A stretch of DNA of 63,992 nt, the filler included, from Fonticula-like sp. SCN 57-25 (Eukaryota), in assembly GCA_001724245.1 (NCBI GenBank). It is 8 parts of 8 records of this genome, joined end to end, with 100 filler letters (N's around TTAATTAATTAA, not from the genome) between each part and the next. Parts side by side here need not be neighbours in the genome. Positions count along the whole stretch, not along the records: positions 31,289 to 41,332 come from MEDX01000354.1; 7 more parts are not named here. One strand, given 5' to 3'. The position numbers were made by a program, and so were the translations under genes. A model generated the notes under the pieces. The model saw only the letters and a list, made by a program, of their open reading frames with translations, was not told where the DNA came from and did no database searches. Numbering within the stretch: the stretch's first letter is position 1; each line of letters opens with the position of its first letter. Below, piece by piece: positions 16,607 to 63,992 of the stretch.

Positions 16607-18406
16607 TTATTCCTCTACGTTGTCCTTCATTGCGGCCGGGCGCCTCGCGAACGCGCGGCGGATCGTGCGGCGGCGCTCCTCCCAGGTGCTGCGCAGACTC
16701 GACAGGATCTCTGGAAACAGCGTTAGTAGGTAAAAGAGTAAGAGGAGTGAGGAAAAGTAGAACAGAGACAAGACATAAACAGCAACAAAAAAGCGCGTAA
16801 AATGAGACGAACCGTCCAGCTTCTTTGTCTGTGCCTGATCGCCGACCGTCTTCTTGATCACGCCCCACCTCTCGCGGCAGCGGTCCGTCCCCCTGCACAT
16901 CTGTTAGAACAAGCACATGCATATTCACTAGACGCACCATGCCTGAAGTGGCCCCTTTGCCACCGTCGACCATTGAATATCGCGCTCGTCGTCGTACTCA
17001 AGCTCAATCAACCTGTATAACCAATGAGACTGCGGCCCAAATCATAGACATTATTCGTACCTGTCGAGCAGCGCAATGTCCTCGTGCGCCTCCCAAACCG
17101 GGTTCGCGTCCTTTTTGTGCTCGCGAATGCTCAAGTAAGTGTACCAGTGCGTGCGGCACTGGTGCGGCGAGCGCGTCTTGACGGCGCGCGAAACAACGTC
17201 CCACGGGATGTCGCTCTCTGGGATGGCGCCCTTGTTGCCGGTGGCGGCCACGATGGCATCGCGAAGCGCGTCATTCTCATGCTGAAGCCACTGACCTATG
17301 TCGGCAAAAGTCCACATATAACATGGTCAGCAGATGGTTAGCGTCAATGAAACACAGGACATTTTACTCGTACCGGACATGTGCTTGGTGGCGTTGATGT
17401 CGCGGAAGCGGTCGCGGCAGCTGGCGGGCATGCGCCCCATGGCGGCGCCAATCTTTGACCACGACGTACCGTGCTGCACGACGAGGCGCTTGAGCGTGTC
17501 GTCCTCGGCCGGCGAAAAGGCGCCCAGGTGGTTGCCGGGGTGGTGGATGCGCTTCAGGTGGCTGTACAGAGAGTGCATCGAGCGCTCCTTCATCTCGCCG
17601 GCGACAAAGTTCCAAAAGCCGCGGAAACGACCGTCCTTGTCCTCGGCTGAGCGGTCGCGGAAGAGGTACGAGCGGAGATCGTCCTCGGTCAGGCGGTTCG
17701 TTGAGAGGTACTCTTGCACGGTCTTTTCCAGGATCTCGTCCTCGCGCTGAGTAAACTTGCCGCGGCGGAGCTGAACGCCCTCCGTCTGCTCAAGAACGGA
17801 AATCTCGCCGGCATTGTGCCAGCGTGCAGACAGCTTCTCCTGCGACTGCACGTGCGCCTTGCGCGACTTGCCGGTTGTCGGCACCGATGCGGGGGCAGCT
17901 TGCGGCTCGTCGGGATGAAGCGACGGCGCGCTCAGCGGAGCGGCCGCGGGGACGGCGCCCGCCGAAGCAATGATGTGGTTAAGCAGATCGTTGCTGCCCA
18001 TCGTCATGGTCGGCTTGGCAGGGGACGGCGGCACGCCGGGCAGCGAGGGGGCCGGTGCAACGGCAGGCGCGGCGCGCGAGGGATCCTTACTCCTCTTGGA
18101 CGAAGCAGCGTCATTGTTATATTCCATAAACATATACTGCGAGGCGCCCTCTACCAGCCCGCTCGCTTCCGTCGGCGGCTTGGGCTTTTTGGCGCGTTTG
18201 ACAGCTGCATCTGGAGGGGCACTGCGCTTCTTGTGCTAGGCGCATGTCACGTTAGATACATGAAACGACGCGAGTGAGAGAAAATAGAAAAAAAAAAGTA
18301 ATTTAGACTGCTAACCAAAGGCAGCACTGTAGCGGAGTGCCCGTATACACAGGCAGCAAAAACGTGCGATGAAAGAGGCGCGTACCTTGGTCGCCGGATC
18401 TTCCAT
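16607..18406 (-). CDS. Myb-repeat DNA-binding protein, Reb1/TTF1/DMTF1-like
   Basis: RRGKFTQREDEIL, GAFSPAEDDTLKRLVVQHGTSWSKIGAAMGRMPASCRDRFR, IPWDVVSRAVKTRSPHQCRTHW; multi-exon, start codon approximate. Confidence 0.85.
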
Positions 18407-18517: not shown

Positions 18518-19841
18518 ATGCGGAGCGTGGCTGCATGGTGGCGGCTTGGCATCGCGTGCGGTCGATCGCTCGCGTCCGCGCCGGTTGCCGGCCCGCCCAC
18601 TCCCGAGGCGGTCTCTGTGCTTCTGCGAGAGGCCCAGTCGTCGGCCGATCAGCTGCGATCGGTCGCTGACTGGCAGGCGCTGCGTGCCGAGCTCGCTACG
18701 CTCGAGGGCCAGCTTGAGGCGCCCGATCTCTGGTCCAATGCCAAGCAGGCATCTGCGCTGTCCCGTCGCGCGGGCGAGCTCAAGGCAAAGCTCACCGAGA
18801 TGACCCGCCTTACAGCGTCCGTATCCGACTACAGCGAGCTCGCGAGCCTTGCGCTCGCCGATCGCGACGACGATCTTCTCGCCGAGGTTGCCGATGGCCT
18901 CTCCAAGCTTGTGACCGAGACCCAAGCCTGCGCCTTTCGCGGCTGCATGAGCGGCGACGCCGACCCGCTTGGCTGCTTTGTCGAGGTCCGGTCCGGCGCC
19001 GGCGGCGTCGAGAGCATGGACTGGACGCAGATGCTCGCGCGCATGTACAGCCGCTGGGCCGAGTCGCGCTCGTTCGAGGTCGAGCTTGCCGACTCGCAAG
19101 CTGGCGAGCAGGCCGGTCTTCGCCACGCCGTGCTGCAGCTGCGTGGCGCGTACGCGTACGGCTGGCTCAAGCACGAAGCCGGCGTGCACCGCCTCGTGCG
19201 CATGTCGCCGTTTGACGCGGCCGGCAAGCGCCACACGAGCTTTGCGAGCGTCAACGTGCAGCCGCTCATTGAAGAGTCGGGCGACCTCGAGCAGGAAATT
19301 GACCCCTCGCAGATACGAATTGACGTTTACCGCGCGTCGGGGGCGGGCGGGCAGCACGTCAACAAGACGGAAAGCGCAGTCCGCATCACTCACATCCCAA
19401 CTGGAATCGTCGTCACGGTACGTGATTTTATGTACAATTTGTATCTTTTTTTACAGTCAATATCGTGTACCTACCATACTTTTGTATTTGTACTCTATTA
19501 TCAACCTTGTTTTATCCACTTTAATCGACCTTTCACTGACGCTTTGATAGTGCCAAAATGACCGCTCTCAGCACCGAAATCGGCGCATCGCCATGGCGAT
19601 GCTTCGCGCGCGCCTCTACGAGCTCGAACAGGAAAAACAGCGCGCTCGCCTCGTCGCCCAGAACGCGGCGCTTCCTTCGACGTCGTTTGGGTCGCAGATC
19701 AGGAGCTACGTGATGCAGCCGTACCAGCTCGTAAAGGACAGCCGAACCGGCGTCGAGCATGGAAATCCAGAGGCGGTCCTCGATGGTGACCTAGACAGGT
19801 TTCTGCAGGCGGCGGTCTTTGCAAAGGGCGGCAAAGTATGA
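18518..19841 (+). CDS. prfB: Bacterial-type peptide chain release factor 2, predicted mitochondrial
   Basis: SPF motif (HRLVRMSPFD), GGQ motif (RASGAGGQHVN), FGSQIRSYV; Arg/Ala/Ser-rich N-terminal extension; one GT-AG intron at 19418-19550. Confidence 0.93.
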
Positions 19842-20006: not shown

Positions 20007-21928
20007 CTATACATGCTGATCTGCAATGATTCCGTCGACACCGAGCTGCAGCAGCAATTTCGTATTCTCCACGATATTGTTATCCTCACCCCACGTGAAC
20101 AGCATCAAGTTCTGCGTCTTGATATCCGAGATGAGCTGCCTCTCCGCGAGCAGCGGCTTGGCAAACGAGCAAATTCCGAGCAGCCCGAGGTCGCGGCAGT
20201 GTCCAATGGCCGCGGGGATCGACATGCACCTCACGTCAGTGTAGAGGCCATACCAGCTGTCGCCGGCGGTGGTGAGGAACATGACCGGGATGGCCGGCTG
20301 CTTGAGCTTGACGAGCGCGCAGACGTCCGGGTCAAAGCACGAGATGACGACGGGGCGCTTTCTCCTGTGCTGCATGATGACGCGCAGGATTGTATCGACG
20401 TACATGTTTCGGTCGGCGAACCCGTCGCGGTCGGCCTTGCCCGGCTTGTTGACCGGGAACTTGATCTCGACGTTGAAGCCGACGTGCTCGGGGATCTTTT
20501 CAAACACGTCCTCGAGCGTCGGGATGCGGCGCTCGAGCGCGCGGATCGTCTCGAACCAGCCGTACGTCGTCGTCGAGCAGCGCACGGGGCGCACATTGTG
20601 CGTCGAGCCCTCGCTGCGGCCGTACTCGAGGATGGACGCCATGTTGTGGCGGATGTACTCGGCGAGGCGGAGGCGCGGCTCGCTCGAAAAGTCGGTGCGG
20701 AGAAGGTGCAGCTGGGCGAGCGTGAGGTCCTTGACGGGCACGCGGATCGGGTCGAGGATGCGCGAGGCGCTGTTCTCGGCAAAGATGCGCGTGTTCCAGT
20801 TGTGGTAGATGATGGGGACGTGGTCCTTGGTGAGCATCACGTCAAACTCCACCATGTCAACAAGGCCCTGTGAGTGGGTTAGCAAATGAGGGAAAAAAGG
20901 ATAGTAGAGTAGGGTAGACATCAATGGCAAACAATGATACTCAATAACAACCAATGACATTCAATGATACACATCAACAATACTCAAGCTCATCAAAAAA
21001 TTATACGTACACGACGGGAAGCCTTGCGGAAGGATCCGATTGTGTTCTCGGTGATGGAAGCGCGGCGAAGACCAGGGGCCTTGCGCTGCGACGTGCCGCT
21101 TCCGCGGTGGCCGACCTTGAAGGTGCGGCCGTGGGCGTACGGGAAGAACGAGTTGCGGCCGGCCAGCGTGTTGAGCGGGTCGACGAACGGCATCGCGAGC
21201 AGGTAGCTGATCGTGAGCGCGCCGACGACGTGCAGCTCGCTGTGCGACAGGAGCGGGAGCTCCATCGAGCCGGCGCTGTTGACGAACTGGCGGACGCTGA
21301 CGGCGGCGTGGCAGAGGCCCACGCCCTCGACGGCAACGTCAAGGATAACGTGGCTCTTGTGCACGAGGTGGGCCGGGAAGCGCGACTTGAGCTGAAGAGG
21401 GCAGCCCTGAGTCCACTCGCCGTCGGCGTCTGACGCGGCGTTCATGTTGTTCATGCGAACGACGGTCTCGTTGGCGAGCACCATCTTGGCCGAGATGCGC
21501 GCGTGCGTAACTTCGCCGGCCGACGTGAGGACGATCGGGTGATGCTTGCTGCGGATACCAAAGCCGAGCTGGAGCTCAGCCTGCTCGTGCAGGAACGGCG
21601 CGCTGTGCTCAAAGATGAGGCGATCGACCGCGATGCGCACGACGGCGTTATCGTCGGCGGGCAGGACGGACTCGTGCAGGGGAAGGTGCGTTGACTCCCA
21701 GGCGCGGAGCGTCTTGGTGATCTTGCAGCGCGTAAAGAACGTGGCCTGCACGGTGAGGCCGGGGATCAGATCTGTGGCCGTGGCCGACCACACGCTGCGA
21801 TCGCCCTTGGTCAGCGGCAGCGCGGCGTTCAGATCCCAGTTACCGATCGCCGACATGTTGCCGACGACGCAAAGCTCGACGAGCGAATCATCCTCCTCAT
21901 ACACTGCCTCAAACAAAACATGGGGCAT
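20007..21928 (-). CDS. GPCPD1: Glycerophosphocholine phosphodiesterase with N-terminal CBM20-like domain (GPCPD1/GDE5-like)
   Basis: LCVVGNMSAIGNW (CBM20-like), VGHRGSG, ENTIGSF, VEFDVMLTKD, FNVEIKFP, TWGEDNN, GVDGIIAD. Confidence 0.88.
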
Positions 21929-22285
21929 TCGTTAAGCAAGTGGAGATCCGATCTACCACTTGGGCTAACGAGGGGGGCAACGGAGGGCCGGGCGGGCGCG
22001 CGAAGAGAAGCGAGTGACGTGACGCGCGGTCGACGAGAGCGACCTTGGACCCGCCAACGACGACCTGGCTCTGCGTGGTGCGTCATCCCTGCATTTTGAT
22101 TGGCTGTCGGACCCGATCGCAAATTGTCGTGTTCACGTGGCCAATTACACACGCGCTTTTTCCTTCTTTTATCACTTTTCGTTGCGGGAGGCACGCGGGT
22201 ACGTGCGGGGAGGAGAGGGTGAGCGCTTGCGTCATCGTTTGATCTGACACGGGGGCGTTCCCGTTGACTTGCAGGCGTTTCGACA

Positions 22286-22951
22286 ATGTCGGACGATAAG
22301 CTTACGCGTATCGCCATCGTGAACGAGGACCGATGCAAGCCAAAGAAGTGCCGCCAGGAATGCAAGAAGAGCTGCCCCGTGGTGCGCCTCGGAAAGCTCT
22401 GCATTGAGGTGCAGCCCACAGACAAGATCTCGGTCATCTCGGAGGAGCTCTGCATTGGTTGCGGTATTTGCGTCAAGGTGCGCAGGCTCCCTTTTTGTGC
22501 TTGGCTCGTTCGGCGGACTGACCGGAATCCCGCGCCAGAAATGCCCGTTCGAGGCTATTACCATTGTTAACCTTCCGACCAACCTGGAGAAGCAGACGAC
22601 TCACCGGTACAGCGCCAACTCGTTCAAGCTGCACCGGTACGGCGGAGCAACTAGTCGTATATGCTTGTTTTACTTATGCGCCACGTAGCCTGCCCACTCC
22701 CCGCCCTGGCCAGGTTCTCGGTCTCGTCGGCACCAACGGTATCGGCAAGAGCACGGCGCTCAAGATCCTAAGCGGTCGCCTGCGCCCCAACCTCGGTCGC
22801 TTCAGTGTACGGTCTTGCGTCGGGATCCGCGCTTGATTCTTACGTGTTGTGCAACTCGTAGTCCCCCCCCTCGTGGCCGGAGGTGATCCAGTACTTCCGC
22901 GGCTCTGAATTGCAAAACTACCTGCAGCGCGTGGTGGAGGACAACCTCAAG
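22286..22951 (+). CDS. ABCE1: ABCE1/Rli1 ribosome recycling ATPase, 5' part
   Basis: [51 protein letters not shown]; truncated at contig end. Confidence 0.97.
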
Positions 22952-22972
22952 GTACATTTTGCGCATATTTTT

Positions 22973-25254: not shown

Positions 25255-27519
25255 TCACAACTCGTTGTCGGTCGGAGGGACGATGGGCTGCACCTGATAC
25301 GTTGCGATGCATGTGAGCAGCCAGGCGCTCGACGCGGCATTAGGGGCGTTTTTGAGGAAAGCATTTCGCGCGAGCGAGAGATCGATCGATTTGTCGTAGA
25401 TCCACAGCTGCTCGGTCGCCTCGTCCTTTGCGCGCCGTTGCGTCAGGTCGGCCCCCGCAAAGGTGAGCAGCTCTGCGAGGTCCTCTCTCGGTGGGTTGAC
25501 AAAGTCGCCGTGCAGGTAGACGGAGCGCCCCTCAAAGAGCCGCTGGCCGCCGTCCTTGAGCTGCTGGCGCGCACGCCTGGGCGCGTGCGTTTCGCCCGAC
25601 ACCATGTCGCCGGTGACCTCAAAGTCGCTTTCCGGGAGCCATTGCCCGCGCTCGATGGACTTTAGCACCCAGTCGACGCTGACCACCCACCAGCCCCTGA
25701 GGATGGCCACGAGATACTTTAGCGTGCGCCGGCAATGTAGAGACTCGTCCACGCCCGTAACAACGTGCGTCACGGCGCCGCTCTCGACCTTTGGCGCGCA
25801 CGATACCAACCGATGAACGTCCACAAACGGCGCGCGCAGCTCAACAATCCGCTAGACAATTGTGTTAGAAAACTGTAATGTGAATATGGGGGGCGTACGC
25901 GCTGCGCGTCAGTCACGCCGCTGAGAAGGATGCAAACTGGCGGCGATGCTGCATGCGCCGCCTGCGATACGGCCGTCTCCTGGGTGACCGCGGCCGGCCA
26001 CGCCGCGTCCAGCAAGTCGTCGCCGTCGCTGCTGGCTGCCGAGCTCGCGACGTTGAGCTGCCGGCGCGCGCTTTGCAGTGCAGCATGGATCGTGAGCTGC
26101 GAGTGAGGCGACGCCGACACCACTAGAGTTGCACAGAAACAAAAAGAGCGCAAAAGTGAGCGAGCAGCCTTGAACGGAGATCATCGTACATTTTCGGCCA
26201 CGCTTGCCTGACTGGCTACCGGTGCTCCTCCCGCCGCTGGCCCTCCTGGCCGTGCTCGTGCCCACCGGCGTCGTCGTTGCAGCGGCCGGCGGCGGCGTCG
26301 ACGCGACCTCTGGCGTCCCCGCGCGGCGCTTTCTGAGACAAATTTCACACGAGGTCCGCGCGCGGGGATTGATAAACGTGCACGCCGAGCACTCCCACGT
26401 GGCGGGGCGCTTGACCCGCTTCGCAGCAGGTTCCTTTGATGCGGCGGACCGCTTGGCGCTATTGGTAATGTCCGACAGGGCGGGCTTGGCACGCGGCGTG
26501 GCCGGCGAAGCGGCGGCGTCCTTTGTCGAGCCGGCCAATGACGAGCTGTTCGCGACCTCGTTCTCGGCAGCAGCGGCGGCGGGCGCGTCACTTGGTGCGT
26601 GCTCGTTCGCCGTCGGCTCTGATTTTAGAGCGGCATCGTCGCATGGCATCGGCGGTGCCGGCAGCTCAACCTCCATCGGGTCGCTGCTCTCCTTGCCCTC
26701 AGCGGCGACCACAGGCTGGGAGGTCGGCGACTGTGACGGCAAATTGGCCGCTAAACCTACCGACAGTGTTTCTGCGTTCATCGCCTCCTCAGCGGGCAGC
26801 TGCGTCTCTGCGTCCATCTCGTCGGCGGCGGGCAGCTGGGTTTCTGCGTCGGCGACGGCGGCGGTCGGCGACGACGGCGGCAAAGGAAGCGACGAGAGCG
26901 TCCGCCCATAGTCGTCCGGAAGCGTCTCGGCCGCCGGAAGTACAATGTCCCGCTGCGATGTGCTCGACCGCTCCTGCGACGTGCTCGATCGCGGCGGAGG
27001 CAGCGGCGCGGAAGAGAGGGCGAGGGCGACCGGAAGCGAGCCGTCCTGTGTCTCCGCCTTTTCAGAAAACGCAGAGTCCACGAGCGCGCTCTCGTCCAGC
27101 ACTGCGCCGCGCGACGGCGGCTTGGGTGGGGACAGAGTGGCCGCATCGGCGATGGCGGGCACGGGCGCGAGTGAAGGAAGCGAGCAGCCAGCCGACGGCG
27201 ACACGAGCGCGCACAGTTGATGGTAGAGACCAATTATGGTGCAAAGGGAATGATGGCGCTTGATCTGGCTCGACCACGCGGGAACGTGGCACACGGGGCA
27301 CTCTGACTTGGAGTCCAGACTGTCAGAGATGCACGAGCTGAAGAGCAGAAAAAGGAAAAAGATGAGAATCAAAAAGGACAAAATTGGGCGGACGCACAAG
27401 CAAAAGTCATGATGACACTGCGTTACCGTATGCGGCTCCGTCATTACTTCAGAGCATAGCGGACACTGCAGCTCGGCCTCCACGGCCGGAAGGCGCGCGA
27501 GAAATGCAGCGCTGAGCAT
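25255..27519 (-). CDS. BRCA1/BARD1-like protein: RING finger, RanBP2-type zinc finger, tandem BRCT
   Basis: CPLC...CHHDFC|SC...CPVCHVPAW RING; WECSACTFIN...CEIC; VTHVV...RTLKYLVAILRGWWVVSVDWV...FEVTGD...PRRAR...LFEG BRCT pair. Confidence 0.85.
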
Positions 27520-27564
27520 CCTGCTCAGCTGCCAGTGGCGCGCGCGAGAATCAACGATTCAAAA

Positions 27565-31288: not shown

Positions 31289-31315
31289 CGCTAGCGAGTG
31301 TCAGAGGCGTCGTAC

Positions 31316-32042: not shown

Positions 32043-33013
32043 ATGATGCGTCCTCGGCGCGCGATGGTGGTCGGCGCGCTGGCGTCGGCCGGCCTCTATC
32101 TTTACCTTCGCCCTGAGCACCCGCTCCCGCCGCTGGCAAAGCGCGAGCTTCGCTTTGCGATGCTGAGTGCGCACAAGGGAGATCACGAGACGGCCGGTCA
32201 GCACTATGATCGCGCCGTGGCGCGCACGCTGGTCGATGCCGGGGATGCGTCGTGGCAGGCGGCATCGGTGCTCTCGACGGCGGGGATATACTTTTCAGAG
32301 AATGGCGAGCCGCTTCGCGCGGGCCCGCTGCTTACCAAGGGGTGGATCTTGCTACTGCAGCAGGGCCGGACGAGCCAGGCGTTGGCCGTGGCGCAGGTGC
32401 TGGGGCACTCGCTGGTCGAGATGGGCGAGGACACCGAGGCAGAAAAGATGCTCAACGCGGCACTGCGGTTGGTCAAGGAGCACGGGAAGGCGGACGCGCA
32501 AGTGCGGCGGTCAGAGGGCGCCATCCGAGAACAGCTCGGCTCGATCCTGCTCGGCGGGCATAGATGTGCGCTCGATGATCTTGATAAGTTTTGCTAATGA
32601 AACGGAATGAAAGACGATGAAAGCCTGGCAATGTACGAGAAAGCGCTTCCTTTTGCGGAAGCAGAGTACGGCAAGAATTCCTGCGAGGTATTATACTTTA
32701 CTGTTTCCCATTTTGTCCTGAAACCGTGGTCTAGGTGGGCATGCTGCTCTTAAACAGCGCGTCGGCGAGCGTCGAAAAGGGCGAGGTGAACAAGGGCGCG
32801 CAGTTGCTGGCCCGCGCGATGCGCATCAATGGGCAGCCGCCGTGCGACGAGGCGGCCCACGCGGCAACCATGCTGGCGCAGGCGCGCGTGCATGAAAAGG
32901 ACGGCAACGCGGAGGAGGCAAGAAAGACCATTGCAAAGGCGAGATCAATAGCAGAGCAGCATAATGACGCGGCCGCTTTGGAGGAGGCGGACAAGAGAAG
33001 TGCACAATTGTAA
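32043..33013 (+). CDS. TPR-like helical repeat protein with N-terminal anchor (TTC19/Mgr3-like, possibly mitochondrial)
   Basis: Basic N-terminus, short TM, helical repeats (AGQHYDRAV, AEKMLNAAL, SLAMYEKAL); two introns. Confidence 0.55.
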
Positions 33014-33088
33014 TTATACATTAATACTAATACAAAGGGGCGACTAGGCCAACGTCGAACGCCAAAGCGACCAGTACATTTCGCCATG

Positions 33089-33613
33089 CTACTCGAGCAA
33101 GGAGCTGTGGATCCCGCCATTGGATACGCGATCTCTATGCAGCCGCAGAGTTCTCCCGTCGCCGCCATCGGCGAGCGTGTCGAGCACGGTGCGCTCGCAC
33201 AGATGTCGCCCGATGCTGCCCTGGAGCCCCACCGTCGTGCCGTCCAGCTCGCGCGCCGATGCGGCCAAGGCCGCCGCCGATATCGGCCCCTTTAGCCTAT
33301 CGAATAATGGCGAGTTCCCCGGGAGAATCTCTCCCAACGCGAGGTAAAAGTGGTGCGGCTCGAGCACCTGATCGATCGACTGGCGGGCTCCTATGTGGCC
33401 GGCGACGCGAATGAGCCGCTCGGCAAAGTCGTCGGAACACCTGCCGAAGCAAAAGTCAGTTGAAACAGCAAGAGATAAGCAACCTCGTGTAAATGCGCAC
33501 CGCTGCGCTTCCTCTACCGCGTCGCTCTCAATTGGCGTCTTCCTGACCCTTTTGAGCGCCGACCGCACCGCGCGCGGCGCCCATAGATGTTGGCGCCCAA
33601 GAGGTGGCGTCAT
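33089..33613 (-). CDS. Small protein with possible histone-fold-like N-terminal half
   Basis: ORF with an in-frame GTGCAT...CAG intron; IESDAVEEAQR|CSDDFAERLIRVA...LEPHHFYLAL has histone-fold-like spacing. Confidence 0.45.
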   Translation of the reverse strand: MTPPLGRQHLWAPRAVRSALKRVRKTPIESDAVEEAQRCAFTRGCLSLAVSTDFCFGRCSDDFAERLIRVAGHIGARQSIDQVLEPHHFYLALGEILPGNSPLFDRLKGPISAAALAASARELDGTTVGLQGSIGRHLCERTVLDTLADGGDGRTLRLHRDRVSNGGIHSSLLE

Positions 33614-33648
33614 CAAAAATCGCCGAATCGTTCCGCGCTTGCTATGCG

Positions 33649-35056
33649 ATGAGCTTGGCACGTGTGCTAGTGCTGGCGGGCCCGACGGGCGTCGGCAAGA
33701 CGCGCCTGTCGCTGGAGCTGGCCAAGCGGCTGCACGGCGAGGTCATTAGCGGCGACCCATTCCAGGCGTACCGCGGCCTGGACATTGGGACGGACAAGGT
33801 CTCGCTTGCCGATCGCGCGCAGGTGCCGCACCACCTGCTCGACATCCTCAATCCGGATCAGTCGTACAATGTGCAAGCATTCAAGGAGCAGTGCGAAAGC
33901 GCCATCAAGGTGCGCCCGCCTGTGCGCTCTCCAATAGTGTCCTAATTGAGTTTACATAGGGAATTCTTCGGCGGAACAAGCTTCCGATCGTGGTGAGCGG
34001 GTCTGGCTTTTACCTGTCGTGGCTTTCGAGCGGCGGCCGGCAGCATCAGACGGGCCCCGCGGACCCGGCGGTGCGTCAGCGGATCCGCGCGGAGCTTGAC
34101 GAGCTCTCGTGGGAGCAGGCGCTCACGCGGCTGCGCGACATTGATCCCGCGCGCGCGGAGCAGCTCAAGCCAAACGACTATTACCGGCTATCACGAGGTA
34201 CGCCGCCTGCATTGACTCTCCCGATGGCGCGATCTAAACATACGAATAGCGCTCGAGATATTTGAGCTTACGGGTCGCAAGCCGTCGTCGTTTGCTGTAC
34301 GCGAGGACGCGGCCGTGGAGGCGCCCAAGCACGATTACCGCGTGGCGTTTCTGATTCGCCCGCGGCTCGCGATGCTTCGCGCCATCGACTTGCGGGTCGA
34401 GATGATGGTACAGCGCGGGCTCATGACGGTGCGCTTTTTTGTTGTATGCGCCTTGTGTGGCTGACGCCGTGCGTAGGAGGTGCAGGGGCTGATGCGCGAC
34501 GGCCTCACGGTGGACTCGCCGGCGGCGCGCGCCATCGGGTACCGCGAGAGCATCGACTACCTCAACGAGGTCAAGGTGCGCCAATACTTCCAGTACATGT
34601 AAACGCTAACAATACTTAAAATGATAGCATACGGACATTGCGCACGGCGAGCGCCACGCCTTTCTTTTGCGGCGCACCGTGTACGCGATCATGGCCGCTT
34701 CGCGGCAGTTTGCGCGGCGGCAGGTCACCTGGGCCCGCGCGGAAAAAAACTTTTTGTGGCTTCACCGCGACTCGCCCGCCATTGAGCAGGCACTAGAGGC
34801 GTACCTCGATACGCCGCGGCCGGCCGGCGAGGAGGGACGGCGGCTCACGGCTCGCGAGCTGTTCCGGTTACGGCCCGCCGAGATGGGCGTTTCGGACAGC
34901 ATTGCAAAGTGCGACGCAGAGAGCGAGCGGACAACGGTCAACCACGAGAATGCGGCCGCGTTGAAAAAGTACAGGCCGCTCAACGTGCTGCTCAACGACC
35001 AGGCGTACTACGACCTGGCGACAAAGATTGCGCGCGATGTGCACAAAAATATGTAA
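33649..35056 (+). CDS. miaA: tRNA dimethylallyltransferase (MiaA-type)
   Basis: LAGPTGVGKT, QAYRGLDIGTDK, VPHHLLDI, NDYYRLSR, AIGYRE, SRQFARRQVTW; four introns. Confidence 0.92.
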
Positions 35057-35410
35057 CAAAAGGCGGCATGTTTGCTACTGTAATTGAAATGGTGTTTGAA
35101 TGCAAGGTCGGTTTCGGAATTTGCCAGTGTATTCTGACACAAAGGGATAAGAGTCATAGTAGTAGGGATATACTTGCGCATTAAAAACAAGAGTAACGTA
35201 AACATCTAAAGGCCTAATAACATACCATTCACAACCGAAAAGGTAAATGAGAACAAACACGCACGTATCAAACATATATAGAAGCAAAATAGCAAAACAT
35301 GAATCTCTAAAAGGGTAATTGATAATCAAAAGGTGCAGCGAGCCAAAGTAAAACGAAACGTCGGATGCACCACAAAGGTAAAAGGATTAAATGTAGTAGG
35401 TCAGATTTCA

Positions 35411-36480
35411 TCAATATGAAGAACGGTGAGTATAGATCCTGTGCGCTTGGCGCAGATGCTTGTCTAGGCTAGGGTTTTGTTTGTACACAGCACCGCAGTT
35501 GTGTGGGCACGGAAACTCCTTTAAAAAATGGCGCAGCACGTGCGACACCAAATTGCTCCGGCGGCACTTGGAGGGCTCCTGCGTGTACGGGCAAAACATG
35601 CAGTTCATGAAGGGGTAGCGCTCGTTCACGGTTGTCCCGTTCTTGTTTGAGTACTCAATGTGCGTCGCGCTAAAGTGGCGGTAGACCTCGTTCACGTCCC
35701 TGAAGTTCAAGTGGCACGACGGGCAGAACGTGTGGGACCACTTGTACGTGCTAGAGATCAAAAACCGGCTAACAATGTTTTTCTGCAATGGGTGTTAGCG
35801 CGCGGTGGCGAGGGTTGCTGACCTGTGCGCACCTTGAGTTCGCCGCGGTGAAAGTGACTCGCGTCCGGATCCGGGACCCACAGGGAAGAGAAGTGGCAGG
35901 CCCGCTCGTCGTCGTCGTCGTCGTCGTCAGTTGAAGCCGAAGACGGCGACAGGGGTGGCGTGATAGCAGGGGAAACGTCCTTGGGCGACACACCAGCGAG
36001 CGCGCGGGACAACCTGCGCTGAACCGCGGCTCCCTGGGGTTGGCTCCCGCGCCGCGCCCTGCTCGACGCCGGACGAAGCCGCCTCAAAAGCGGGACCTGG
36101 ATCACCTCCTCGTCGACCTCGGGAACCTCGATCTTGTGCAGGTTCATGGGGGAGATCGTCGACATGCAGATCGTTGTCCTTGATTCCTGTTGAGGGATCG
36201 GCGAGACGGCGCGATCCTCGAGATCGGCCTGATCGAACGACGCCAGCGACTCGGTCGACGAATCGGACCCCGGCGAGCCTGCAGCGCTGTCGTCCGAAGA
36301 AAAATCGTCGTCGCTCTCGCTGTAGTAGTCGCAGTCATATTTCGGCATGCTCGATACGTCCAGCTGCACAGAAAAGAGCTCATCCAACTGCGCCGCCGCG
36401 GGCATCCATTGGCGCTCGCTCGACGGCTCCGCGGCCAACCCCTGATAGTAGGATTCTAACCCCCACGCCTCGGAAATCAT
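35411..36480 (-). CDS. C2H2 zinc-finger transcription factor
   Basis: Acidic Ser-rich N-terminus; CPSC...HFSATH, CMFC...HVLRH, CPHNC...HLRQAH; one intron near 35758-35822. Confidence 0.8.
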
Positions 36481-36997
36481 GTCGGCAGCCCTTTCGTTTC
36501 CGCGCGACGGGGCCAGGCAAAAGTCAAAGTGACAGGTGGAGAAAGGAAGGGAAAGGGTAGGGGCTTATATCAAGCCCGTCTGCCAACAAGAAGACACCGG
36601 CGAACAAGGGCAGACAAACCAAATTTGGAAGGAAGCCCCCGAGCCCGCCTGCCTTTTTGGGAAATGTTGTCAGTTTTAGTATCAAACAGAAAGTGCAACT
36701 TTGCAAAATCTATTTAAAACGACACACGTGGCCGACATACTTGTTTTGTGCCGAACTCAAATCTCACTTTGATGGCCATCAACACGATCGATCGCCGGGG
36801 TAAATGATGGCCATCAAATCAACAAAAAGCCGAAATAAAGTCCGCCCCGGACTCGGAGCTAGCCGTCATCCTACCCTGGCCGCATACCGCCAGATCTGGT
36901 TCCTGACCACCGGGTCTGCTTGTTTCTTTAGGTGCACCTCGCCGTTTGTGTCTCTTGGTTAACTGACGCATCGTGTGCGCCGACAGCGACGGGAATA

Positions 36998-38055
36998 ATG
37001 GACTCTCCGACGACGCCGACTGTTTCGACTGATGCCGCGGCCCCGGCCGCCGCCGCCCCCGCCCCCGCAGCTGCGCCGACGGCCACCGCCGCTGGCCCGA
37101 CGGGCCCCTCGCCCGTCGCCCAGCTCCGCGAGGGCCTTTCCTCTGCCTTTGCGTCGCTGAACCCGCTTGCGCAAAAGGTCAATCTCGGCTTTATGAAGGC
37201 GACTCAGCTTGCCGAGGAGCAGATCGGCACCGCCGAAAAGACCGAGCTTCCGGCCGAGTACCGCGCCCTCGAGGCCAAGGTCGACCGCATCCGCGCGATG
37301 CACGAGAACCTGTCGCGCGCGACGACGCAGTTCCTGAGCCCCGGTACGTCCACGACGCTCAAGCTGCAGGTGGCGGACGTGTTTAGCAATGTCGCCGGCG
37401 CCGTGCACGCCCCGCAGGACAACGCCGTGACGGACAAGCTCCGCGCCGTCAACCTCGACGTGGACTCGAGCCACCAGGTGCTCGGCTCGCACTTTACCAA
37501 GAGCGGTGAGACGATCGGCGATGCCTCGCCGCTCGGCTCGGCGCTCGTAAAGTGCGGCGACGCGCACGACAAGCTCGGCCGCGCGCGCCTCCAGCTCAAC
37601 CTCGAGATCTATGAAAAGTTTGTCAAGCAGCTCAGCGTCACCCTCGAGGGCTCCATCAAGCAGGCCATGATCTGCCGCAAGAACGTGCAGAGCGCCCGCG
37701 TCAACCTCGATGCCCTCAAAAAGGCCGCCAAGTCGGCAAAGCCCGAGAACACCAAGGTCAAGGAGGACCTCGCCGCCGCCCAGCTCACCTTTGACTCGGC
37801 CGTCCAGGCCGCAACCGTCGCCATGCAGGAGGTCATCGCGTCGGTGCGCATAATTTTGTACGGCGTAATTTGGCGCTAAATGTTGATGATTAGCCCGAGC
37901 CCATCGTGCACCTCTCGGACTTTATGGCCGCCATGCTCGACTACTTCCAGCGCGGCCGCGACCTGCTCGCCGAGCTCGCGCCCGAGATCGACGCCATCCG
38001 CGTCGCGCAGGAGGCGCGCACCCCCGAGGAGCGCCTGCGCCTCTCCCTCGCCTAA
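36998..38055 (+). CDS. N-BAR domain protein, Gvp36-like
   Basis: QLAEEQIGTAEKTELPAEYRALEAKVD, RKNVQSARVNLDA, FDSAVQAATVAMQEV; intron 37844-37893. Confidence 0.78.
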
Positions 38056-38194
38056 ACGGCGACGTTTTATCTACGGACGCGGCGGCCGAGTATCCCCGCC
38101 CCATATCCACGCTTTTTGTTTGGCTTATAATAGAGTTTACCCACATGATTTTCTGATTTACTTTGACAATGTATTTACAAACACTCTAAAACGG

Positions 38195-39261
38195 CTAGGC
38201 GTGGGTGAGCTTGCGGCGCTGCGCGCACACGCCGCGCGGGTTGGCGAGCGCCTGCTGCAGCCTCGTGTTGAAGATGCTGACGCCGTAGTTGTGCGAATTT
38301 CCGCTGGACGGCGTGCAGCCGCCGTTGGTGTGGATGCCGATGGCAAAGTTTGACGTCGTGTCAAAGATGGCCGAGCCCGAGTTGCCGTTGCTCGTGTCCA
38401 CCCTGTGGTCGACCGTGTCGCCGCTGCGCCCATGGAAGGGGCCCGACGCGGTCTTTTGCACCCTGCGCTCGGTGGCGGGAAAGTCCTCGTTCTCGCCAAA
38501 GCCAATGATCTCGAGGTTGGCGCCAAACTCGGGGTTCTCGTCGCTGCGCGCCAGGCGGTACAGGAGACCAGTGTAGCGCTCCAGTGGCGTCAGGCCGTGC
38601 TCGCTGTTGGGGAACACGCCAAAGAAGCGCCAGTCGTTCGTGATGCCGTTGTAGGCGGTCTGCATGCTCTCCTGATCAACAATGTACTGATCCTCGGGGC
38701 CGGGATGCACGAGCGTGCCATCCTCCTTGCTCATCGGCACATTGAACTCGACAAGGCCGTAGCCGACGTCGGTGCAGTGACCGGCGCTGAGGAAGCAGTT
38801 GCCGGGCGCGTCCGTGATCCACGCAGTGCAGCAACCATTCGGGTCATCGTAAATGTAGCGGCCCTGGCGCGTATCATTCGAGAGAACACGCGTGTCCGGC
38901 GAATAGCACACGCTCTTCTCCTCCACTGCGCCCTCATTCGACGAAGAAGNACGAGGACGCTGTCGCCGTTAAAGTACGCGGTCGTCAGGCGCCACTGCGC
39001 CGCCGTCACGCCGTTGAGGTGCTGGACAGCGCCGTCCTCCAGGGAAGTGAGACGGAGCGTGTGGCCGTTCAGGCTGAGCTTGCGGAACCGCAGGCGGAGC
39101 CAGCCGGCATCCGACTGGCGGACAACGTCCTCAAAAACAACCTCGCCCTCGCGCTGCGCATTAAAGGTCAGCGTCAGTGCGTCCTCGCCTACCAAAAGCT
39201 GCTGCGCCTGTGCCGCCACGACGCAGAGCGCCAACACGGCCACAAGCGACCAGCGACCCAT
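38195..39261 (-). CDS. Secreted trypsin-like (S1) serine protease with N-terminal accessory domain; interrupted by an assembly N at 38950
   Basis: Signal peptide, CFLSAGHC (His), NDW (Asp), GNSGS (Ser), IGIHTNGGC; frame changes at the single N. Confidence 0.82.
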
Positions 39262-39362
39262 GATGGGATTGCCAGAACGGGGTGTGGGGCAGGTGTGGGG
39301 CGAAACAAAAGATGAATAATGAACAACCGAGCACCAAAAGAGCTAAAAAAAAATTAGGATGG

Positions 39363-39442
39363 TGACGAGGGTGGGATTTGAACCCACGCCCTTTCGGACT
39401 GGTGCCTTAAACCAGCGCCTTAGACCGCTCGGCCACCTCGCC
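39363..39442 (-). tRNA. tRNA-Leu (AAG)
   Basis: GGCGAGGTGGCCGAGCGGTCTAAGGCGCTGGT-TTAAGGC-ACCAGTCCGAAAGGGCGTGGGTTCAAATCCCACCCTCGTCA; long variable arm, A and B boxes, downstream T-run terminator. Confidence 0.96.
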
Positions 39443-39530
39443 TTTCCATGCATAGAGTGGAAAAAAAGGAGCATATAAACGAAAGGCATTGACCAGTTTG
39501 AAAGCGCGCGCGCTGCTCTCGCTCCGAACG

Positions 39531-40604
39531 ATGCTGTGTGCGCGGATCCCGGTGGCGCAGCTGCGCTCGCACGCTGCGGTGCGAGGCATGCTTCGCTGCG
39601 GCTTTAGTGCTGCGGCGACGGCAACGCGGCCGCACCATGTTTCTTCCAAGGACGGGTCCCGGAAAGGCGAGGTCGTTGTCGTGACATCGGGCAAAGGTGC
39701 GCGCGCAGCCAGCGCGGGATGTTGCGGCGGTACTGACCGCCATTGTTTTTCCCTTCCTTTGTGCGCGCTCTCTAGGCGGAGTGGGCAAGACGACGACTGC
39801 TGCCAGTTTTGCGTATGGACTTGCCCAGGCTGGCATGAAGACGTGCGCCATTGATTTCGACATTGGCCTGCGGAATTTAGACTTGCACCTGGTACGCTGC
39901 TCGCGTGCTTAATGTTTTGTGTCGACTAATGCCACGTGCAGGGCATGGAGCGCCGTGTGATCTACGACTTTGTCCATGTCATCCGCGGCGATGCGACGCT
40001 TCAGCAGAGTCTTATTCGCGACCGCCGCTGCGGCGATCTCTACGTTCTCGCTGCTTCCCAGACGCGCGACAAGACTGCGCTCACCGAGGACGGCGTCTCT
40101 CGCGTTCTCAACGAGCTTCGCCAGAGCTTTGACTATATCGTGTGCGACTCTCCCGCCGGCATTGAAAGCGGCGCCTTCCACGCCATGTACTATGCCGACC
40201 GCGCCATTGTGTGCACCAACCCCGAGGTGTCGTCGGTGCGCGACTCTGACAAGATGCTCGGCATCCTCAATAGCAAGTCGCACCGCGCGGTCAACGGCCT
40301 CGAGCCGATCGAGGCGCTGCTCCTCATCACGCGGTACCAGCCCGAGCTCGTCTCCAAGGACGCGATGCTCTCCGTCGACGACATCAATGAGATGCTCGGC
40401 ATTCCGTGCATCGGCGTCATCCCAGAGTCAAAGGACGTCATCGCCAGCGCCAACGTCGGCCAGCCCGTCATCCTCGCCGGGGACGACTCGGCGGCCGCCC
40501 AGGCGTACAAGGACTTTGTCCGGCGCTTCCTCGGCGAGGAGGTCCCGTTCAAGTTCCTCACGCCAGAGCCAAAGAGCCTGCTGTCGCGCATCTTTGGCCG
40601 ATGA
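39531..40604 (+). CDS. minD: Septum site-determining ATPase MinD, nucleus-encoded, predicted mitochondrial
   Basis: After splicing 39697-39775 and 39892-39941: [51 protein letters not shown]-terminal amphipathic [10 protein letters not shown]; Arg-rich presequence without acidic residues. Confidence 0.96.
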
Positions 40605-41332
40605 GCGGGGGCAACAGACAACGATGCACAGCCTCTAGTATGTTGGGGGATACGAATTTATAATCAGTTGGCGCGGCCAAAAGAAGCGCTTTTGGGCAAA
40701 TGTAAAAACTAATGATCTACTTGAATACAGTATTATCCTCCTTTAGTGGCACAGCAAAGAACCGTTTATAGTGGAAGGGCATTGTACGCTCGCAAGGGAA
40801 GGGCGAGGAACAGTGTCAAAGTATACGATGATCTGCGATTGGTCGATTTTGCTAATCGTCGCTTGTGATTGGTCCAATATTCCTATTAAATTGTATTGAT
40901 GCATTGCGCGCTAAATAGCCCAAGAATAAAAGCACGAAGAGGTCATATGTGGTGAAAATAGCAAAGTATACAATACACCAGTGTTGTTTGAGAGTTAATA
41001 TAGATGCTTTCAGTGAGGCGGACATTTCTCTCTTTCGCTCAACAGATCACATTGGTAAGCCTACAAATCAACTTGATGGACTGCTTGAAATCTTTCCCTT
41101 TTGATATGTTTGAAGGATGAAAAAAAGTGCTTCCTTTTTTGTCTCGCTTGGGCCACAACTGAACAACAGTCTTGCAAGAGTACTGGCGCTCTGGAGCATT
41201 GTTCAATGCGCGTTTTGATAAAGTTATCACGTCAAGTTAAGTGTCATCGATGACACATAGCGTTAAGTGTCATCGAATCACGTGATCATATGGGATGACT
41301 GCGCATAATCCGGGTTTTTTCCGGATTTTTTC

Positions 41333-42960: not shown

Positions 42961-44277
42961 CTACTCGTCGTCCTCCTCGTCCGACTCTTCCTCGGCATTG
43001 CGCAGCCACTCGATAAAGGGCGCGGCGTGGCTGCGGATGGCCTTGGCAACGTCCTGCTTGACATAGTCGTTCGAGGTGCTGTCGGCCCACTCGAGGACGA
43101 CCTCCTCCTCGACAACGTCGCGGTCGTAGAGGTACTTGAGCACGCGGCTAATGTCCTTTTGCCAGTCCTTGTTCTGGTAGAGGAGGCGCTCGAGGCCGCC
43201 GAGGAGACCAAGCTGCATGCTCTTGCCCTTGACAAACTGCTGCATGAGAGCGACGCGCTTGGGCAGCTCGGCCACCAGCGCCTGCTCAAACCAAACCTGC
43301 ACAGCGACGGCGGCGGCGCGGTCCGCGCGCAGCTTGAGCTTCTCGTAGAGGGCGGTCAGCTCGGCGCCGGCGGTCGCCTTGGACGCCGCATCGGCAAACT
43401 GGCTGGCGGCGTCGGCAGCCGACACCTTCTCGACCTGCGCAGTGTCGTTGGCGATCAGGCGGCGGATGCCGTCGTTCATAGAGTTCAGGTCGGCCTGGCG
43501 GAGCGCCTCGGCGGCGGCGATAACGTCGGCCGAAAACTCCTCATCGTCGTCCTCGGCGGCACCGGGGGACGGCATCGACGAGGTCGGGTCCGAGCCTTCG
43601 GCGCCGAGCACGGGCGTGAACTGCATGCCGGCCTCCTCCTCCTCGTCGCCCACGTTGGACGGCGTGCGCGAGGCGGTGCCGTTGCTCTTGGGGGTCGGCG
43701 ACGGGTCGTCGTCGTCGGCGTTGTCGTCCTCGTTGTCAGAGCCGCGCTTGCTGCCGGGGTTCTTGAGCTGGCGCTCCTTGCGGCGCTCCTCCTTGGTCTT
43801 CTTCTTGGCGCCGCCCGAGCCGGCAGCGTTGCCGGCCGTCGCGGGGGGGTTCTTGAGAATGTACGTGATGAGCTTGTTGGTCATGTCGGCGCGGCTGATG
43901 GCGCCGCACGCCTTGCAGTTAAGGAGTAGGTTCTGCTTGCGGTCAATGACCATGTCCGTCTCGGGGTTGCTGCACGAAAAGCAAAGCACAAACTTTTTGA
44001 TGAAGACGTCCAGGAGCTCGGCAAGGCGCGGAGTGTCATGGGCACCGTTCACAATGTAGCGAGACGCCTTGTCGTCCATGATGGTCTGGGCGCCCAGCTC
44101 GCAACCAAAGAACTTGGTCGGGTAGGACGGGGGGCGCGCGAGCGAGCGCGCCACTTCCTCCATGTTGGTGACGACCGTCTTGATGCCGTTACCCTTGCCC
44201 TCAATCTTGGACTGAAGGCGGGGCATCTTGTAGCGGTAGAAGGCATCCTGAACCTCGCGATTGATGTTGACCGACAT
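42961..44277 (-). CDS. EIF5: Translation initiation factor eIF5
   Basis: FYRYKMPRLQSKIEGKGNGIKT, FGCELGAQT, C-x2-C zinc ribbon, W2 domain LYDRDVVEEEVVLEW...PFIEWLRNAEEES. Confidence 0.97.
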   Translation of the reverse strand: MSVNINREVQDAFYRYKMPRLQSKIEGKGNGIKTVVTNMEEVARSLARPPSYPTKFFGCELGAQTIMDDKASRYIVNGAHDTPRLAELLDVFIKKFVLCFSCSNPETDMVIDRKQNLLLNCKACGAISRADMTNKLITYILKNPPATAGNAAGSGGAKKKTKEERRKERQLKNPGSKRGSDNEDDNADDDDPSPTPKSNGTASRTPSNVGDEEEEAGMQFTPVLGAEGSDPTSSMPSPGAAEDDDEEFSADVIAAAEALRQADLNSMNDGIRRLIANDTAQVEKVSAADAASQFADAASKATAGAELTALYEKLKLRADRAAAVAVQVWFEQALVAELPKRVALMQQFVKGKSMQLGLLGGLERLLYQNKDWQKDISRVLKYLYDRDVVEEEVVLEWADSTSNDYVKQDVAKAIRSHAAPFIEWLRNAEEESDEEDDE

Positions 44278-62468: not shown

Positions 62469-63992
62469 CTACGCTACAGTGGGCTTGGGCTTGATCGGCG
62501 GCGGCTTTGGCTTGGCTGCCGTCACTGCCGGCCCGACCGCCGACCCCAAATTAGCCGCTGCCTGAGCCACCGCAGGCGCCAGTGTCCCCTCCTTTGGCGT
62601 CGTCGCCTCCTCACCGAGCTCGTCGTTGCCCGCATGGTAGCTCGACTTTCGCATATCCGAGAGCTCTTTCCGTGCGTTTGTGAGCTCCTTTTCGAGCGTC
62701 AAAATCTTGACCTGCTGCTCCATGTCCCTGCGCTTGCGCTGCCCCACCGTAAGCTCTGCAATCTGGCGCCTGCTCTCGCCCTCGAGCTTCTTGGCCGCGG
62801 CCTCTTTGGCGGCCTTGACGAGCAGCTTTGTCGCCTCGCTGACTGTCTTGGCGGCCGTCTCGAGGTTGGCCTGCGTGCGGCTGTTCTTGTCGGCCTTGAC
62901 GCGCGACGCAGCGACGAGCTGCGCGGTGGCGGCGCTGACTTCGTGCGCGGCAACAACGAGCTGCTCCATCGTGTGCGTCCCCTTGACGACGCCGTCGGCG
63001 TTCTCGACGAGCGTCGTCGTGCACATGGCAACGGCCTTGGCGGCCGACACGAGGCCTTCCGTCCACCTGTGATTCTTCTTGTAAAACTGCTGCGCCGACG
63101 CCGACCCGCGACCCTTGGCAACAATCTCCTGCTGCGCGAGCGTCGCCGCGCGAATAAGGTTGCCAATGGCGCCAGTGATGCCCATGACGCTCTCGAGAAT
63201 CGCCGTGTTCACCTTGTACTCGGCCGACGTGTCCGCCGATGGCGCGTTCAGCAGCGCACTCAGACGCGCAGCAGCAGCCTCAATTGCCTGCGCGGCGCTC
63301 AGCATTTCCTGCTCGACGCGGTCAGACACGTCGGGCAGCTCGTTCGTCTGCGCGACAGATTCAAGCCCGCGCGTCAGTTCCTCGACCGCTGATTGGGCAG
63401 CGGCGCGGCTCGCGGCAAGATTCGTAGTGTCGCGGTGCAGCATGTCCTGCATTGACCGCGCGACCGACCGCGCAGCATTCGAGATTGGCTCTGCAACGGC
63501 GTCGTCCAGCGACCGCGTCAGTCCCTTGACATTCTGAAGCAGCTGATCGGCGGCCGAGGCGGCGTCGCCGGCAACGCCCATCACGGCCGTCGGCGTTCCC
63601 TTGCCATCCTTGAGATTCATCAAGGTATTCGACAAGTCCCTTTAAAGTGCATCAGTATACGTGATAAAAGTTTAAATAGGCGTACGTTACAGATGACGTG
63701 ATCTTGTCGAGGTGTGCGAGAGTATAGTCGGCCGTCGCGTTCTGGTTGCCAGCGTGCAGTGGCGAGTCAAACTGAAACACTGACTCTTCGATCTTTGTCC
63801 GCGACGCATCCAGCATATCATCTATGGTTCCATTGAGTGTGTCAGCAAGAACAAAAAAGGCGTCAGATTCGTACCGAGAAGGCCGTTCATTTCGTTGGAC
63901 TGCTTGTCGCGCAGTGCGTCAAGCTCGGCCTGTAGGGCGCGAGCACGTGCGTCTGCCTCGTTCTGAATCACACTCGACTCGCGCAGCGCATG
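62469..63992 (-). CDS. SLA2: Sla2/End4/HIP1-family endocytic adaptor, C-terminal I/LWEQ domain
   Basis: FYKKNHRWTEGLVSAAKAVA, EQLVVAAHEVSAATAQLVAASRVKA, MEQQVKILTLEKEL; 5' end outside the window. Confidence 0.93.

Follow-up and report, generated by a model that had tools for sequence, protein, structure and literature searches.

Putative mitochondrial MinD and RF2 genes in an uncultured eukaryote plausibly close to the opisthokonts

The window analysed here, a stretch of 63,992 bases from the assembly of Fonticula-like sp. SCN 57-25 (GCA_001724245.1), joins eight metagenome contigs of 7.2-10.0 kb with a guanine-plus-cytosine (GC) content of 0.57-0.63 and carries genes for the ATPase MinD and for the release factor RF2; the contigs are separated by spacers of the form N44-TTAATTAATTAA-N44, giving 14 runs of 44 N bases. 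Both genes are best explained, with a probability that we put at about 0.7, as vertically inherited mitochondrial relics encoded by one GC-rich (~58%) uncultured eukaryote, a member of Amorphea and, most likely, of Obazoa. The organism itself occurs in bioreactor, wastewater, aquatic and soil metagenomes. The original prediction, made from this DNA, proposed an early-diverging holomycotan or other close relative of the opisthokonts that had kept Min and RF2. The wider half of that proposal, a close relative of the opisthokonts, is plausible, as the translation factor eIF5 joins Fungi and Holozoa at supports of 98-99; the narrower half, an opisthokont that kept both genes, is unproven and draws no support from the approximately unbiased (AU) test, where p is 0.55. 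Mitochondrial MinD is already known in non-opisthokont obazoans, and since the apusomonad Thecamonas has it, the surprise value of finding MinD and RF2 together hinges on where the organism is placed.

MinD and RF2 are nuclear genes

The three exons of MinD (Table 1) splice into a coding sequence of 945 nucleotides (nt), that is, 314 codons plus stop, free of internal stops. Exon 3 taken alone scores 246 bits against the NCBIfam model TIGR01968 (minD_bact), for which the curated cutoff is 212.9, and MinD chains in the Protein Data Bank (PDB) match nearly the whole of this exon at 278 and 256 bits. The deviant Walker A motif GKGGVGKT with its signature lysine, which spans intron 1, is aligned in all full-length MinDs compared. 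At the other end, the C-terminus lines up with the ...KKGLFSRLFG tail found in bacterial and eukaryotic MinDs and is predicted to be an amphipathic membrane-targeting sequence. The first 45 residues contain eight arginines and lysines and one acidic residue (aspartate or glutamate), a basic extension that appears to have the make-up of a mitochondrial presequence.

RF2 is spliced from two exons into a protein of 396 amino acids (aa), likewise without internal stops. Its first exon scores 321.5 bits against the NCBIfam model prfB and 182.7 against prfA; as a partial sequence it stays short of the 370-bit prfB cutoff. Among PDB chains, E. coli-type RF2 matches this exon at 252 bits and RF1 at 134. 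Because prfB outscores prfA and the RF2 chains outscore those of RF1, the protein is RF2 and not RF1. When 185,579 prokaryotic species were searched, with one genome per species, 595 relatives were confirmed; the top 80 are 41-50% identical to the window protein and include many from alphaproteobacteria. With the top prokaryotic identity reaching only 50%, a recent transfer of RF2 from a prokaryote is unlikely. Taken together, the GT-AG introns, the N-terminal extensions and a codon usage like that of their neighbours establish MinD and RF2 as real nuclear genes.

The relatives of the window MinD were compared in a quick tree of the 120 best homologues and in a careful tree of 47 rows under the LG+C20 model. 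Eight of the 120 rows bear eukaryotic names, beside many proteobacterial sequences: Thecamonas trahens, Stygiella, Malawimonas, Acytostelium, Heterostelium, Vannella, one MMETSP transcript and one EukProt transcript. In the larger tree 34 rows, including all named eukaryotes, are set apart from 86 bacterial rows at 99 in the Shimodaira-Hasegawa-like approximate likelihood-ratio test (SH-aLRT), and in the smaller tree 34 eukaryote-type rows split from 13 bacterial rows at 100/100. Because it lies inside the eukaryotic clade and apart from the bacterial rows, the window protein is a mitochondrial-type MinD of the kind found in protists. Its immediate partner in the 47-row tree, at 100/98, is a metagenome protein from the Joint Genome Institute (JGI) that is 75-78% identical to it. 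Thecamonas trahens is the top-scoring organism-named match among the best 120 (63% identity) and, after the JGI relative, the nearest row by path in the 47-row tree, where the join itself is a polytomy. Forcing the window's pair into a clade with Thecamonas and P0009 costs 0.8 log-likelihood units (lnL; AU p 0.42), and the alignment contains no indels common to the window MinD and that of Thecamonas.

A JGI protein of 208 aa with a 78%-identical MinD sequence (P0002) has an unrelated start and joins the alignment at QSLIRDRR, 20 residues into exon 3 of the window gene; its gene probably has an intron where the window MinD has none. P0002 was not recovered in a metagenome scan for MinD relatives, which returned one locus with 100% protein identity over exon 3 (L001) and 31 others at no more than 65%. 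L001, on a contig from another assembly, represents a second strain, 97.7% identical to the window over 2005 nt. The 48 aligned columns in which the two differ are distributed very unevenly: three lie in the coding sequence (945 nt), all of them synonymous, four in the introns (129 nt), 41 in the flanks (850 nt) and none in the neighbouring tRNA gene. As the differences in the coding sequence are synonymous only, MinD is under purifying selection. Positions 40605-41194, the 590 nt past MinD that L001 covers, hold 21 of the 48 differences.

Contig cohesion, placement and rival explanations

Whether these genes belong to one genome was addressed through composition and through co-occurrence in public metagenomes. 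The GC-corrected tetranucleotide correlation among the eight contigs ranges from 0.73 to 0.90 over the 28 pairs (mean 0.83), against 0.29-0.75 (mean 0.52) with 14 other metagenome contigs of GC 0.50-0.68. Contig pairs 5-6 (0.89) and 3-6 (0.90) rank near the top; contig 5 carries MinD and contig 3 RF2. The separation into different bins that the original prediction had named as a refutation did not appear in this comparison of composition. Codon usage in 15 open reading frames (ORFs) of the window correlates at a mean of 0.79, against a mean of 0.55 with 16 bacterial genes; the values are 0.91 for MinD with eIF5, 0.88 for RF2 with eIF5, and 0.89-0.90 for MinD and RF2 with the BAR-domain gene that lies 1.6 kb upstream of MinD on the same contig.

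A search of public runs with positions 36900-40700 put on top a bioreactor metagenome, containing 0.98 of the sampled words and flagged as the possible source, followed by partial matches in aquatic, wastewater, "fungus", fuel-cell and soil metagenomes; no RNA run containing the MinD region was listed in this search. The assembly is accordingly a metagenomic bin, which justifies the concern over binning in the original prediction. Four further runs hold the MinD contig at 0.53, 0.39, 0.39 and 0.35 of words, and in all four the RF2 contig is present too, covered in 29 of 30 bins by short contigs of depth 2-7, mostly with 0-9 differences per piece. The runs X3 (bioreactor, 2016) and X4 (wastewater, 2017) agree in pieces, depths and differences and, the numbers being identical, are probably one data set deposited twice; X3 moreover shares a study with the best-matching bioreactor run, and the independent support for co-occurrence amounts to two to three data sets. 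Given the agreement in tetranucleotides and codon usage and the joint occurrence of contigs 3 and 5 in metagenomes, the eight contigs are taken to come from one organism, and a mixed bin is unlikely.

In the same four runs metagenome depth over 19185-19437, within RF2, rises to 15-83, compared with 0-9 in the other 29 bins, and many loose ends fall at 19330 and 19370 inside this spike. The spike is the conserved GGQ stretch attracting bacterial release-factor contigs, and not a feature of the eukaryote.

The only marker in the placement trees is eIF5. Its top matches are three Logan assemblies (48, 46 and 41% identity), followed by chytrids and Mucoromycota at ~41%, with animals at 36-40%. The trees combine top matches with representatives of an exhaustive search, 12 of the 30 representatives looked up bearing an organism name; labelled rows include Rozella, Catenaria, Coemansia, Ramicandelaber, Clydaea, Pigoraptor, Corallochytrium, Clastostelium (Amoebozoa) and Gloeochaete. 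All three trees put the query into a clade of eight sequences, supported at 99 with 187 rows, 91 with 78 and 92 with 56. The seven clade mates (P0121, P0122, P0123, P0125, P0131, P0244 and P0275) stem without exception from Logan or JGI assemblies; their identity to the window eIF5 is 41-69%, for three of them over only one third of its length, and end branches within the clade reach ~0.6 changes per column. To judge from these sequences, the clade looks like an old, diverse and unannotated eukaryotic group.

Together with Fungi and Holozoa this clade forms a group at SH-aLRT 99 (78 rows) and 98 (56 rows), with the amoebozoan rows next. Its position inside the group shifts with the method: the 187-row FastTree tree makes it sister to Fungi (SH-like support 89), the 78-row LG+G4 tree leaves it in a polytomy, and the free search under the site-heterogeneous LG+C20 model (56 rows) makes it sister to Fungi plus Holozoa (84). 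Under LG+C20, forcing the query together with Fungi yields a tree 1.9 lnL better than the free quick-search tree (AU p 0.55), and forcing it together with the amoebozoan rows changes the score by -7.2 lnL (AU p 0.34). RRP12 was tried as a second placement marker and dropped, because its homologue search returned only six proteins, the window's own at 100% and five others at 25-26%, with Wallemia (25%) as the single named one. The eIF5 trees suggest an organism within Amorphea, most likely within Obazoa, and we lean slightly towards a position just outside the opisthokonts over one inside them.

Several points weigh against the reading of one obazoan with two mitochondrial relics. The placement comes from one protein, eIF5, whose contig is other than those of MinD and RF2 and is tied to both by composition alone; the composition controls are probably bacterial contigs rather than other eukaryotes, and some GC-rich bacterial genes reach codon-usage correlations of 0.91. 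The eIF5 trees are without any row labelled apusomonad, breviate or nucleariid, and each of the three constrained placements survives its AU test (p 0.55, 0.34 and 0.42). Kinship with a group in which mitochondrial Min had been found before, which the original prediction had set against its own proposal, is accordingly rejected neither for the apusomonad join (p 0.42) nor for the amoebozoan one (p 0.34). Pfam scans covered 435 six-frame, stop-to-stop ORFs over four scans, with length floors of 120 aa on all contigs, 70 aa on contigs 3-5 and 80 aa on contigs 1, 2, 6, 7 and 8; within the 64-kb window there is no Pfam match to MinC, MinE or FtsZ, and the mitochondrial genome is not within it either, nor is EF1-alpha, whose insertion is a molecular synapomorphy of the opisthokonts.

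Among the more specific placements, an obazoan outside the opisthokonts, be it an apusomonad or a lineage of comparable grade, is the more favoured candidate, at somewhat less than even odds; mitochondrial MinD being already known there, the gene content would be expected. The free LG+C20 topology, with its joint clade at 98 and the amoebozoan rows next, points this way, as do the rank of Thecamonas as best organism-named and nearest named MinD and the small cost of joining the two. One MinD loss and one RF2 loss at the opisthokont stem would suffice, which fits the inference published for RF2 in the main text of Duarte et al. 2012 (PMC3472500). Against it stand the MinD polytomy, in which Thecamonas is not joined, the lack of shared indels and of a named apusomonad eIF5, either in the top 120 matches or in the query clade, and the equally good fit of a placement sister to Fungi. 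That placement would make the organism a true opisthokont, a deep holomycotan lineage of nucleariid grade or of a new kind, which kept Min and mtRF2a past the opisthokont root; we consider this possible and doubtful. It is favoured by the FastTree topology, where the sister group takes in Rozella, Catenaria and Kickxellomycotina, by the gain in likelihood under constraint, by the chytrids and Mucoromycota that head the named eIF5 matches, and by the partial match of the BAR gene to BAR_2, presumably the family of fungal Gvp36. The free LG+C20 search, however, puts the clade outside Fungi plus Holozoa, the AU test expresses no preference, and because chytrid and mucoralean eIF5 branches are short, these sequences would head match lists whatever the kinship. 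Of the 34 eukaryote-type MinD rows, eight are named by organism and none of these is an opisthokont, mtRF2a is reported absent from animals and fungi in the main text of PMC3472500, and at least two losses per gene would be needed instead of one.

What probability remains beside these two placements goes to other Amorphea or to a mixed bin, which would pair the MinD and RF2 contigs of one protist, such as an amoebozoan, with "fungal-looking" housekeeping contigs of a different organism. Such a mixture is improbable: the metagenomic source, the purely compositional link of the eIF5 contig and the amoebozoan affinity of eIF5 that the AU test does not reject leave it some room, and it is countered by the company that MinD keeps on its contig (BAR, PHAF1 and isopentenyltransferase genes) and RF2 on its own (Myb, GDPD and ABCE1), by the tetranucleotide agreement of all 28 of 28 contig pairs and the matching codon usage, by the joint presence of contigs 3 and 5 in other runs, and by a window MinD that falls outside both MinD clades with named amoebozoans. 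An origin of MinD and RF2 from bacterial contamination, recent horizontal transfer or algal plastid-type genes is close to refuted. Many bacterial MinDs are 63-66% identical to that of the window, equal to the eukaryotic ones, and the RF2 GGQ stretch draws high depth from bacterial contigs; yet both genes are split by spliceosomal introns, begin with N-terminal extensions and lie among eukaryotic genes, MinD sits within the eukaryotic mitochondrial-type clade at 100/100, prokaryotic RF2 identity has its ceiling at 50%, the codon usage of both equals that of the host genes, and no plastid or photosynthesis genes were seen among the 435 ORFs scanned. The preferred reading keeps MinD and RF2 in one eukaryotic lineage of Amorphea, in which both would have been inherited vertically with no recent acquisition.

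Further genes and feature coordinates

Much of the gene inventory listed in the original prediction was recovered by the Pfam scans: eIF5, RPL7A, RIO2, RRP12 and the N-terminus of ABCE1 are present, the named Sla2 peptide lies within the I/LWEQ ORF, MinD shares contig 5 with the BAR gene, and RF2 stands head to head with the putatively Reb1-like gene, recognised here by its Myb domains, their start codons lying 111 nt apart on opposite strands. The BRCA1/BARD1-like gene is borne out by its BRCT domains and a weak BARD1-type RING, the CBM20-GPCPD1 gene by a GDPD domain beside a weak CBM20, and the cyclin gene by a weak match to PF08613 (1.4e-4). No Pan6-type match answered to the Pan6-like C-terminus among the 435 ORFs, ORFs below 70-80 aa lying outside the scan. 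The uniform intron style said to run across the contigs drew no support here: the three verified introns of MinD and RF2 measure 50, 79 and 133 nt with GC of 0.32-0.63, and the loose pattern GTRHGY...YTRAY...YAG, no commoner in the eight contigs than in shuffles, is uninformative about intron style.

The description of the BAR gene as Gvp36-like holds in part. Its ORF matches the Pfam family BAR at 5.6e-24 (85.5 bits, residues 87-304) and also BAR_2 (PF10455) at 1.3e-22, with 80.8 bits against a cutoff of 25.4; the latter match covers only positions 143-255 of the 286 in the model, and the closest solved structure is that of endophilin-B1 (2e-14, residues 80-298). Elsewhere on contig 5 the tRNA isopentenyltransferase gene is divided among several exons, and the trypsin-like gene on the minus strand has a signal-peptide-like start, MGRWSLVAVLALCVVAAQAQQ, its reading being broken by a single N at 38950. 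Past MinD, from 40605 to the contig end at 41332, GC falls to ~50% and there is no ORF with a family match.

Two further ORFs are recorded as observations in their own right. A small ORF at 29582-29881 (-) matches a PIGBOS1-like Pfam family at 28.3 bits, against a gathering score of 27 (E 1.9e-6); the family is named after a human gene. An exon of 989 codons at 53205-56444 (+) has an N-terminal CH domain, an SH3 domain around residue 740 and a RhoGEF domain extending into the next exon; this order may loosely recall PIX-type exchange factors, from which the spacing is quite different. In the Rfam scan of the window a tRNA was the sole match and no rRNA was found, and among the unexplained ORFs the Pfam scan found no ciliary or other lineage-diagnostic domains.

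Table 1. Coordinates of contigs, genes and gene parts in the window
Feature	Position	Strand	Details
Contig 5	31289-41332		order: PHAF1 N-terminus, TPR gene, tRNA isopentenyltransferase, BAR gene, trypsin-like gene, tRNA-Leu, MinD
BAR-domain gene (endophilin-B/Gvp36-like), first and probably largest exon	36998..37876	+	ORF from 36932, first ATG 36998
Probable secreted trypsin-like protease gene	38195..39261	-	Pfam Trypsin_2 2.1e-4, below gathering score; between BAR and MinD
tRNA-Leu (AAG)	39360..39442	-	Rfam tRNA 57 bits, ARAGORN; 89 nt upstream of MinD start codon
MinD, three exons	39531-40604	+	
MinD exon 1	39531..39696	+	~45-residue N-terminal extension, then start of Walker A
MinD intron 1	39697..39775	+	79 nt, GT..AG, interrupts GKG/GVGKT at the slash
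MinD exon 2	39776..39891	+	remainder of Walker A, switch I; minD_bact 48.8 bits, model positions 12-48; Pfam CbiA
MinD intron 2	39892..39941	+	50 nt, GT..AG, ACTAAT 11 nt before AG
MinD exon 3 including stop codon	39942..40604	+	C-terminal tail aligns with bacterial MinD membrane-targeting helix
Contig 3	15390-22972		order: Myb gene, RF2 (divergent), GDPD gene with weak CBM20, ABCE1 N-terminus
Myb-domain gene	17054..18406	-	Pfam Myb_DNA-binding 8e-16 and 1.8e-6; ATG at 18406
Myb gene exon 1	18386-18406	-	7 codons
Myb gene intron	18236-18385	-	150 nt
Myb gene exon 2	18235 to 17330	-	
Further Myb exon	17054-17326	-	
RF2 exon 1	18518..19417	+	300 codons; N-terminal extension, PCRF domain, SPF at residue 230, GGQ at residue 277
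RF2 intron	19418..19550	+	133 nt, GTACGT...CTGAC...TAG, GC 0.32
RF2 exon 2 including stop codon	19551..19841	+	rest of RF-1 domain, Pfam RF-1 4e-14
GDPD gene, weak CBM20 upstream (GPCPD1-like architecture)	20010..21931	-	GDPD 1.3e-34, CBM_20 3e-5
ABCE1/RLI N-terminus	22268..22972	+	Fer4_RLI 1.2e-15, ABC_tran 4.9e-8; runs off the end of the RF2 contig
BRCA1/BARD1-like gene	25258..27558	-	C-terminal BRCT_2 4.2e-12, BRCT 1e-10; N-terminal zf-RING_6 1.3e-4, below gathering score
eIF5, single exon	42961..44277	-	438 aa; Pfam eIF-5_eIF-2B 5.6e-37, W2 2.3e-22
RRP12, exon of 928 codons	49595..52378	-	Pfam
Sla2/Hip1R C-terminal part (I/LWEQ domain)	62472..63641	-	I_LWEQ 1.5e-51; FYKKNHRWTEGL at 63051-63086 (-)

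Proposed function, significance and known counterparts

Under the preferred reading of two mitochondrial relics, MinD would be imported into mitochondria by means of its basic N-terminal extension and would then bind the inner face of the mitochondrial inner membrane, where a partnership with MinC, MinE and mitochondrial FtsZ may position the division ring of the organelle. RF2 is expected to terminate mitochondrial translation at UGA and UAA, and if it is active at UGA, the mitochondrial genome would therefore have kept UGA among its stop codons.

Mitochondrial Min proteins and mtRF2a are markers of how "bacterial" the ancestral mitochondrion was, and a lineage near the opisthokont root that has both allows their loss to be dated within a shorter interval. 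Should the organism lie inside the opisthokonts, each gene would have disappeared twice, in separate events leading to animals and to fungi, and a relative of fungi would become available for comparing FtsZ/Min-based with dynamin-based mitochondrial division. It is tempting to imagine, were the holomycotan placement true, Min-based mitochondrial division and a UGA stop recognised by mtRF2a in the sister clade of Fungi. Even on a conservative view the window documents a widespread, deep protist clade known only from metagenomes, for which public protein sets offer no close relative bearing a name.

The loss of Min is dated to the opisthokont root or earlier. The Min system of protist mitochondria is said to be the subject of Leger et al. 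2015, who reportedly list no opisthokont with Min, and Thecamonas trahens has a MinD annotated by NCBI. A literature search gave no report of Min or FtsZ in nucleariids or opisthokonts, which is not proof that none exists. For the release factor, the main text of Duarte et al. 2012 (PMC3472500) describes mtRF2a in land plants, red algae, dictyostelids and some stramenopiles and infers its loss at the opisthokont root; Thecamonas has no occurrence in that main text. Further parts of what is known are covered in PMC7050145 and PMC5377515.

Set beside known systems, the RF2 of the window, a candidate mtRF2a, resembles that group in its PCRF and RF-1 domains with SPF and GGQ motifs, in being a nuclear gene with an N-terminal extension, and in its proteobacterial, in many cases alphaproteobacterial, affinities, as seen in a comparison with prokaryotic RF2s. 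The BAR-domain protein is like endophilin-B1/Bif-1 over residues 80-298, with no SH3 domain in the exon found in the window, and may compare with fungal Gvp36 through the part of the BAR_2 model noted above.

MinD shares its ATPase core and its membrane-targeting tail with bacterial MinD (PDB 3q9l and 6riq, which we take to be those of Escherichia coli and Pseudomonas; 256-278 bits), from which it differs in its introns and in the basic extension of ~45 residues. Its closest counterparts are the mitochondrial MinDs of Thecamonas trahens, two dictyostelids, Vannella, Stygiella and Malawimonas, with which it makes one clade apart from bacterial MinD at 100/100. It is 59-63% identical to these named protist proteins over exon 3, and like them it has an N-terminal extension before GKGGVGKT and keeps the ...L(L/F)SR(I/L)FG tail; unlike them, it stands on a branch of its own with one metagenome relative.

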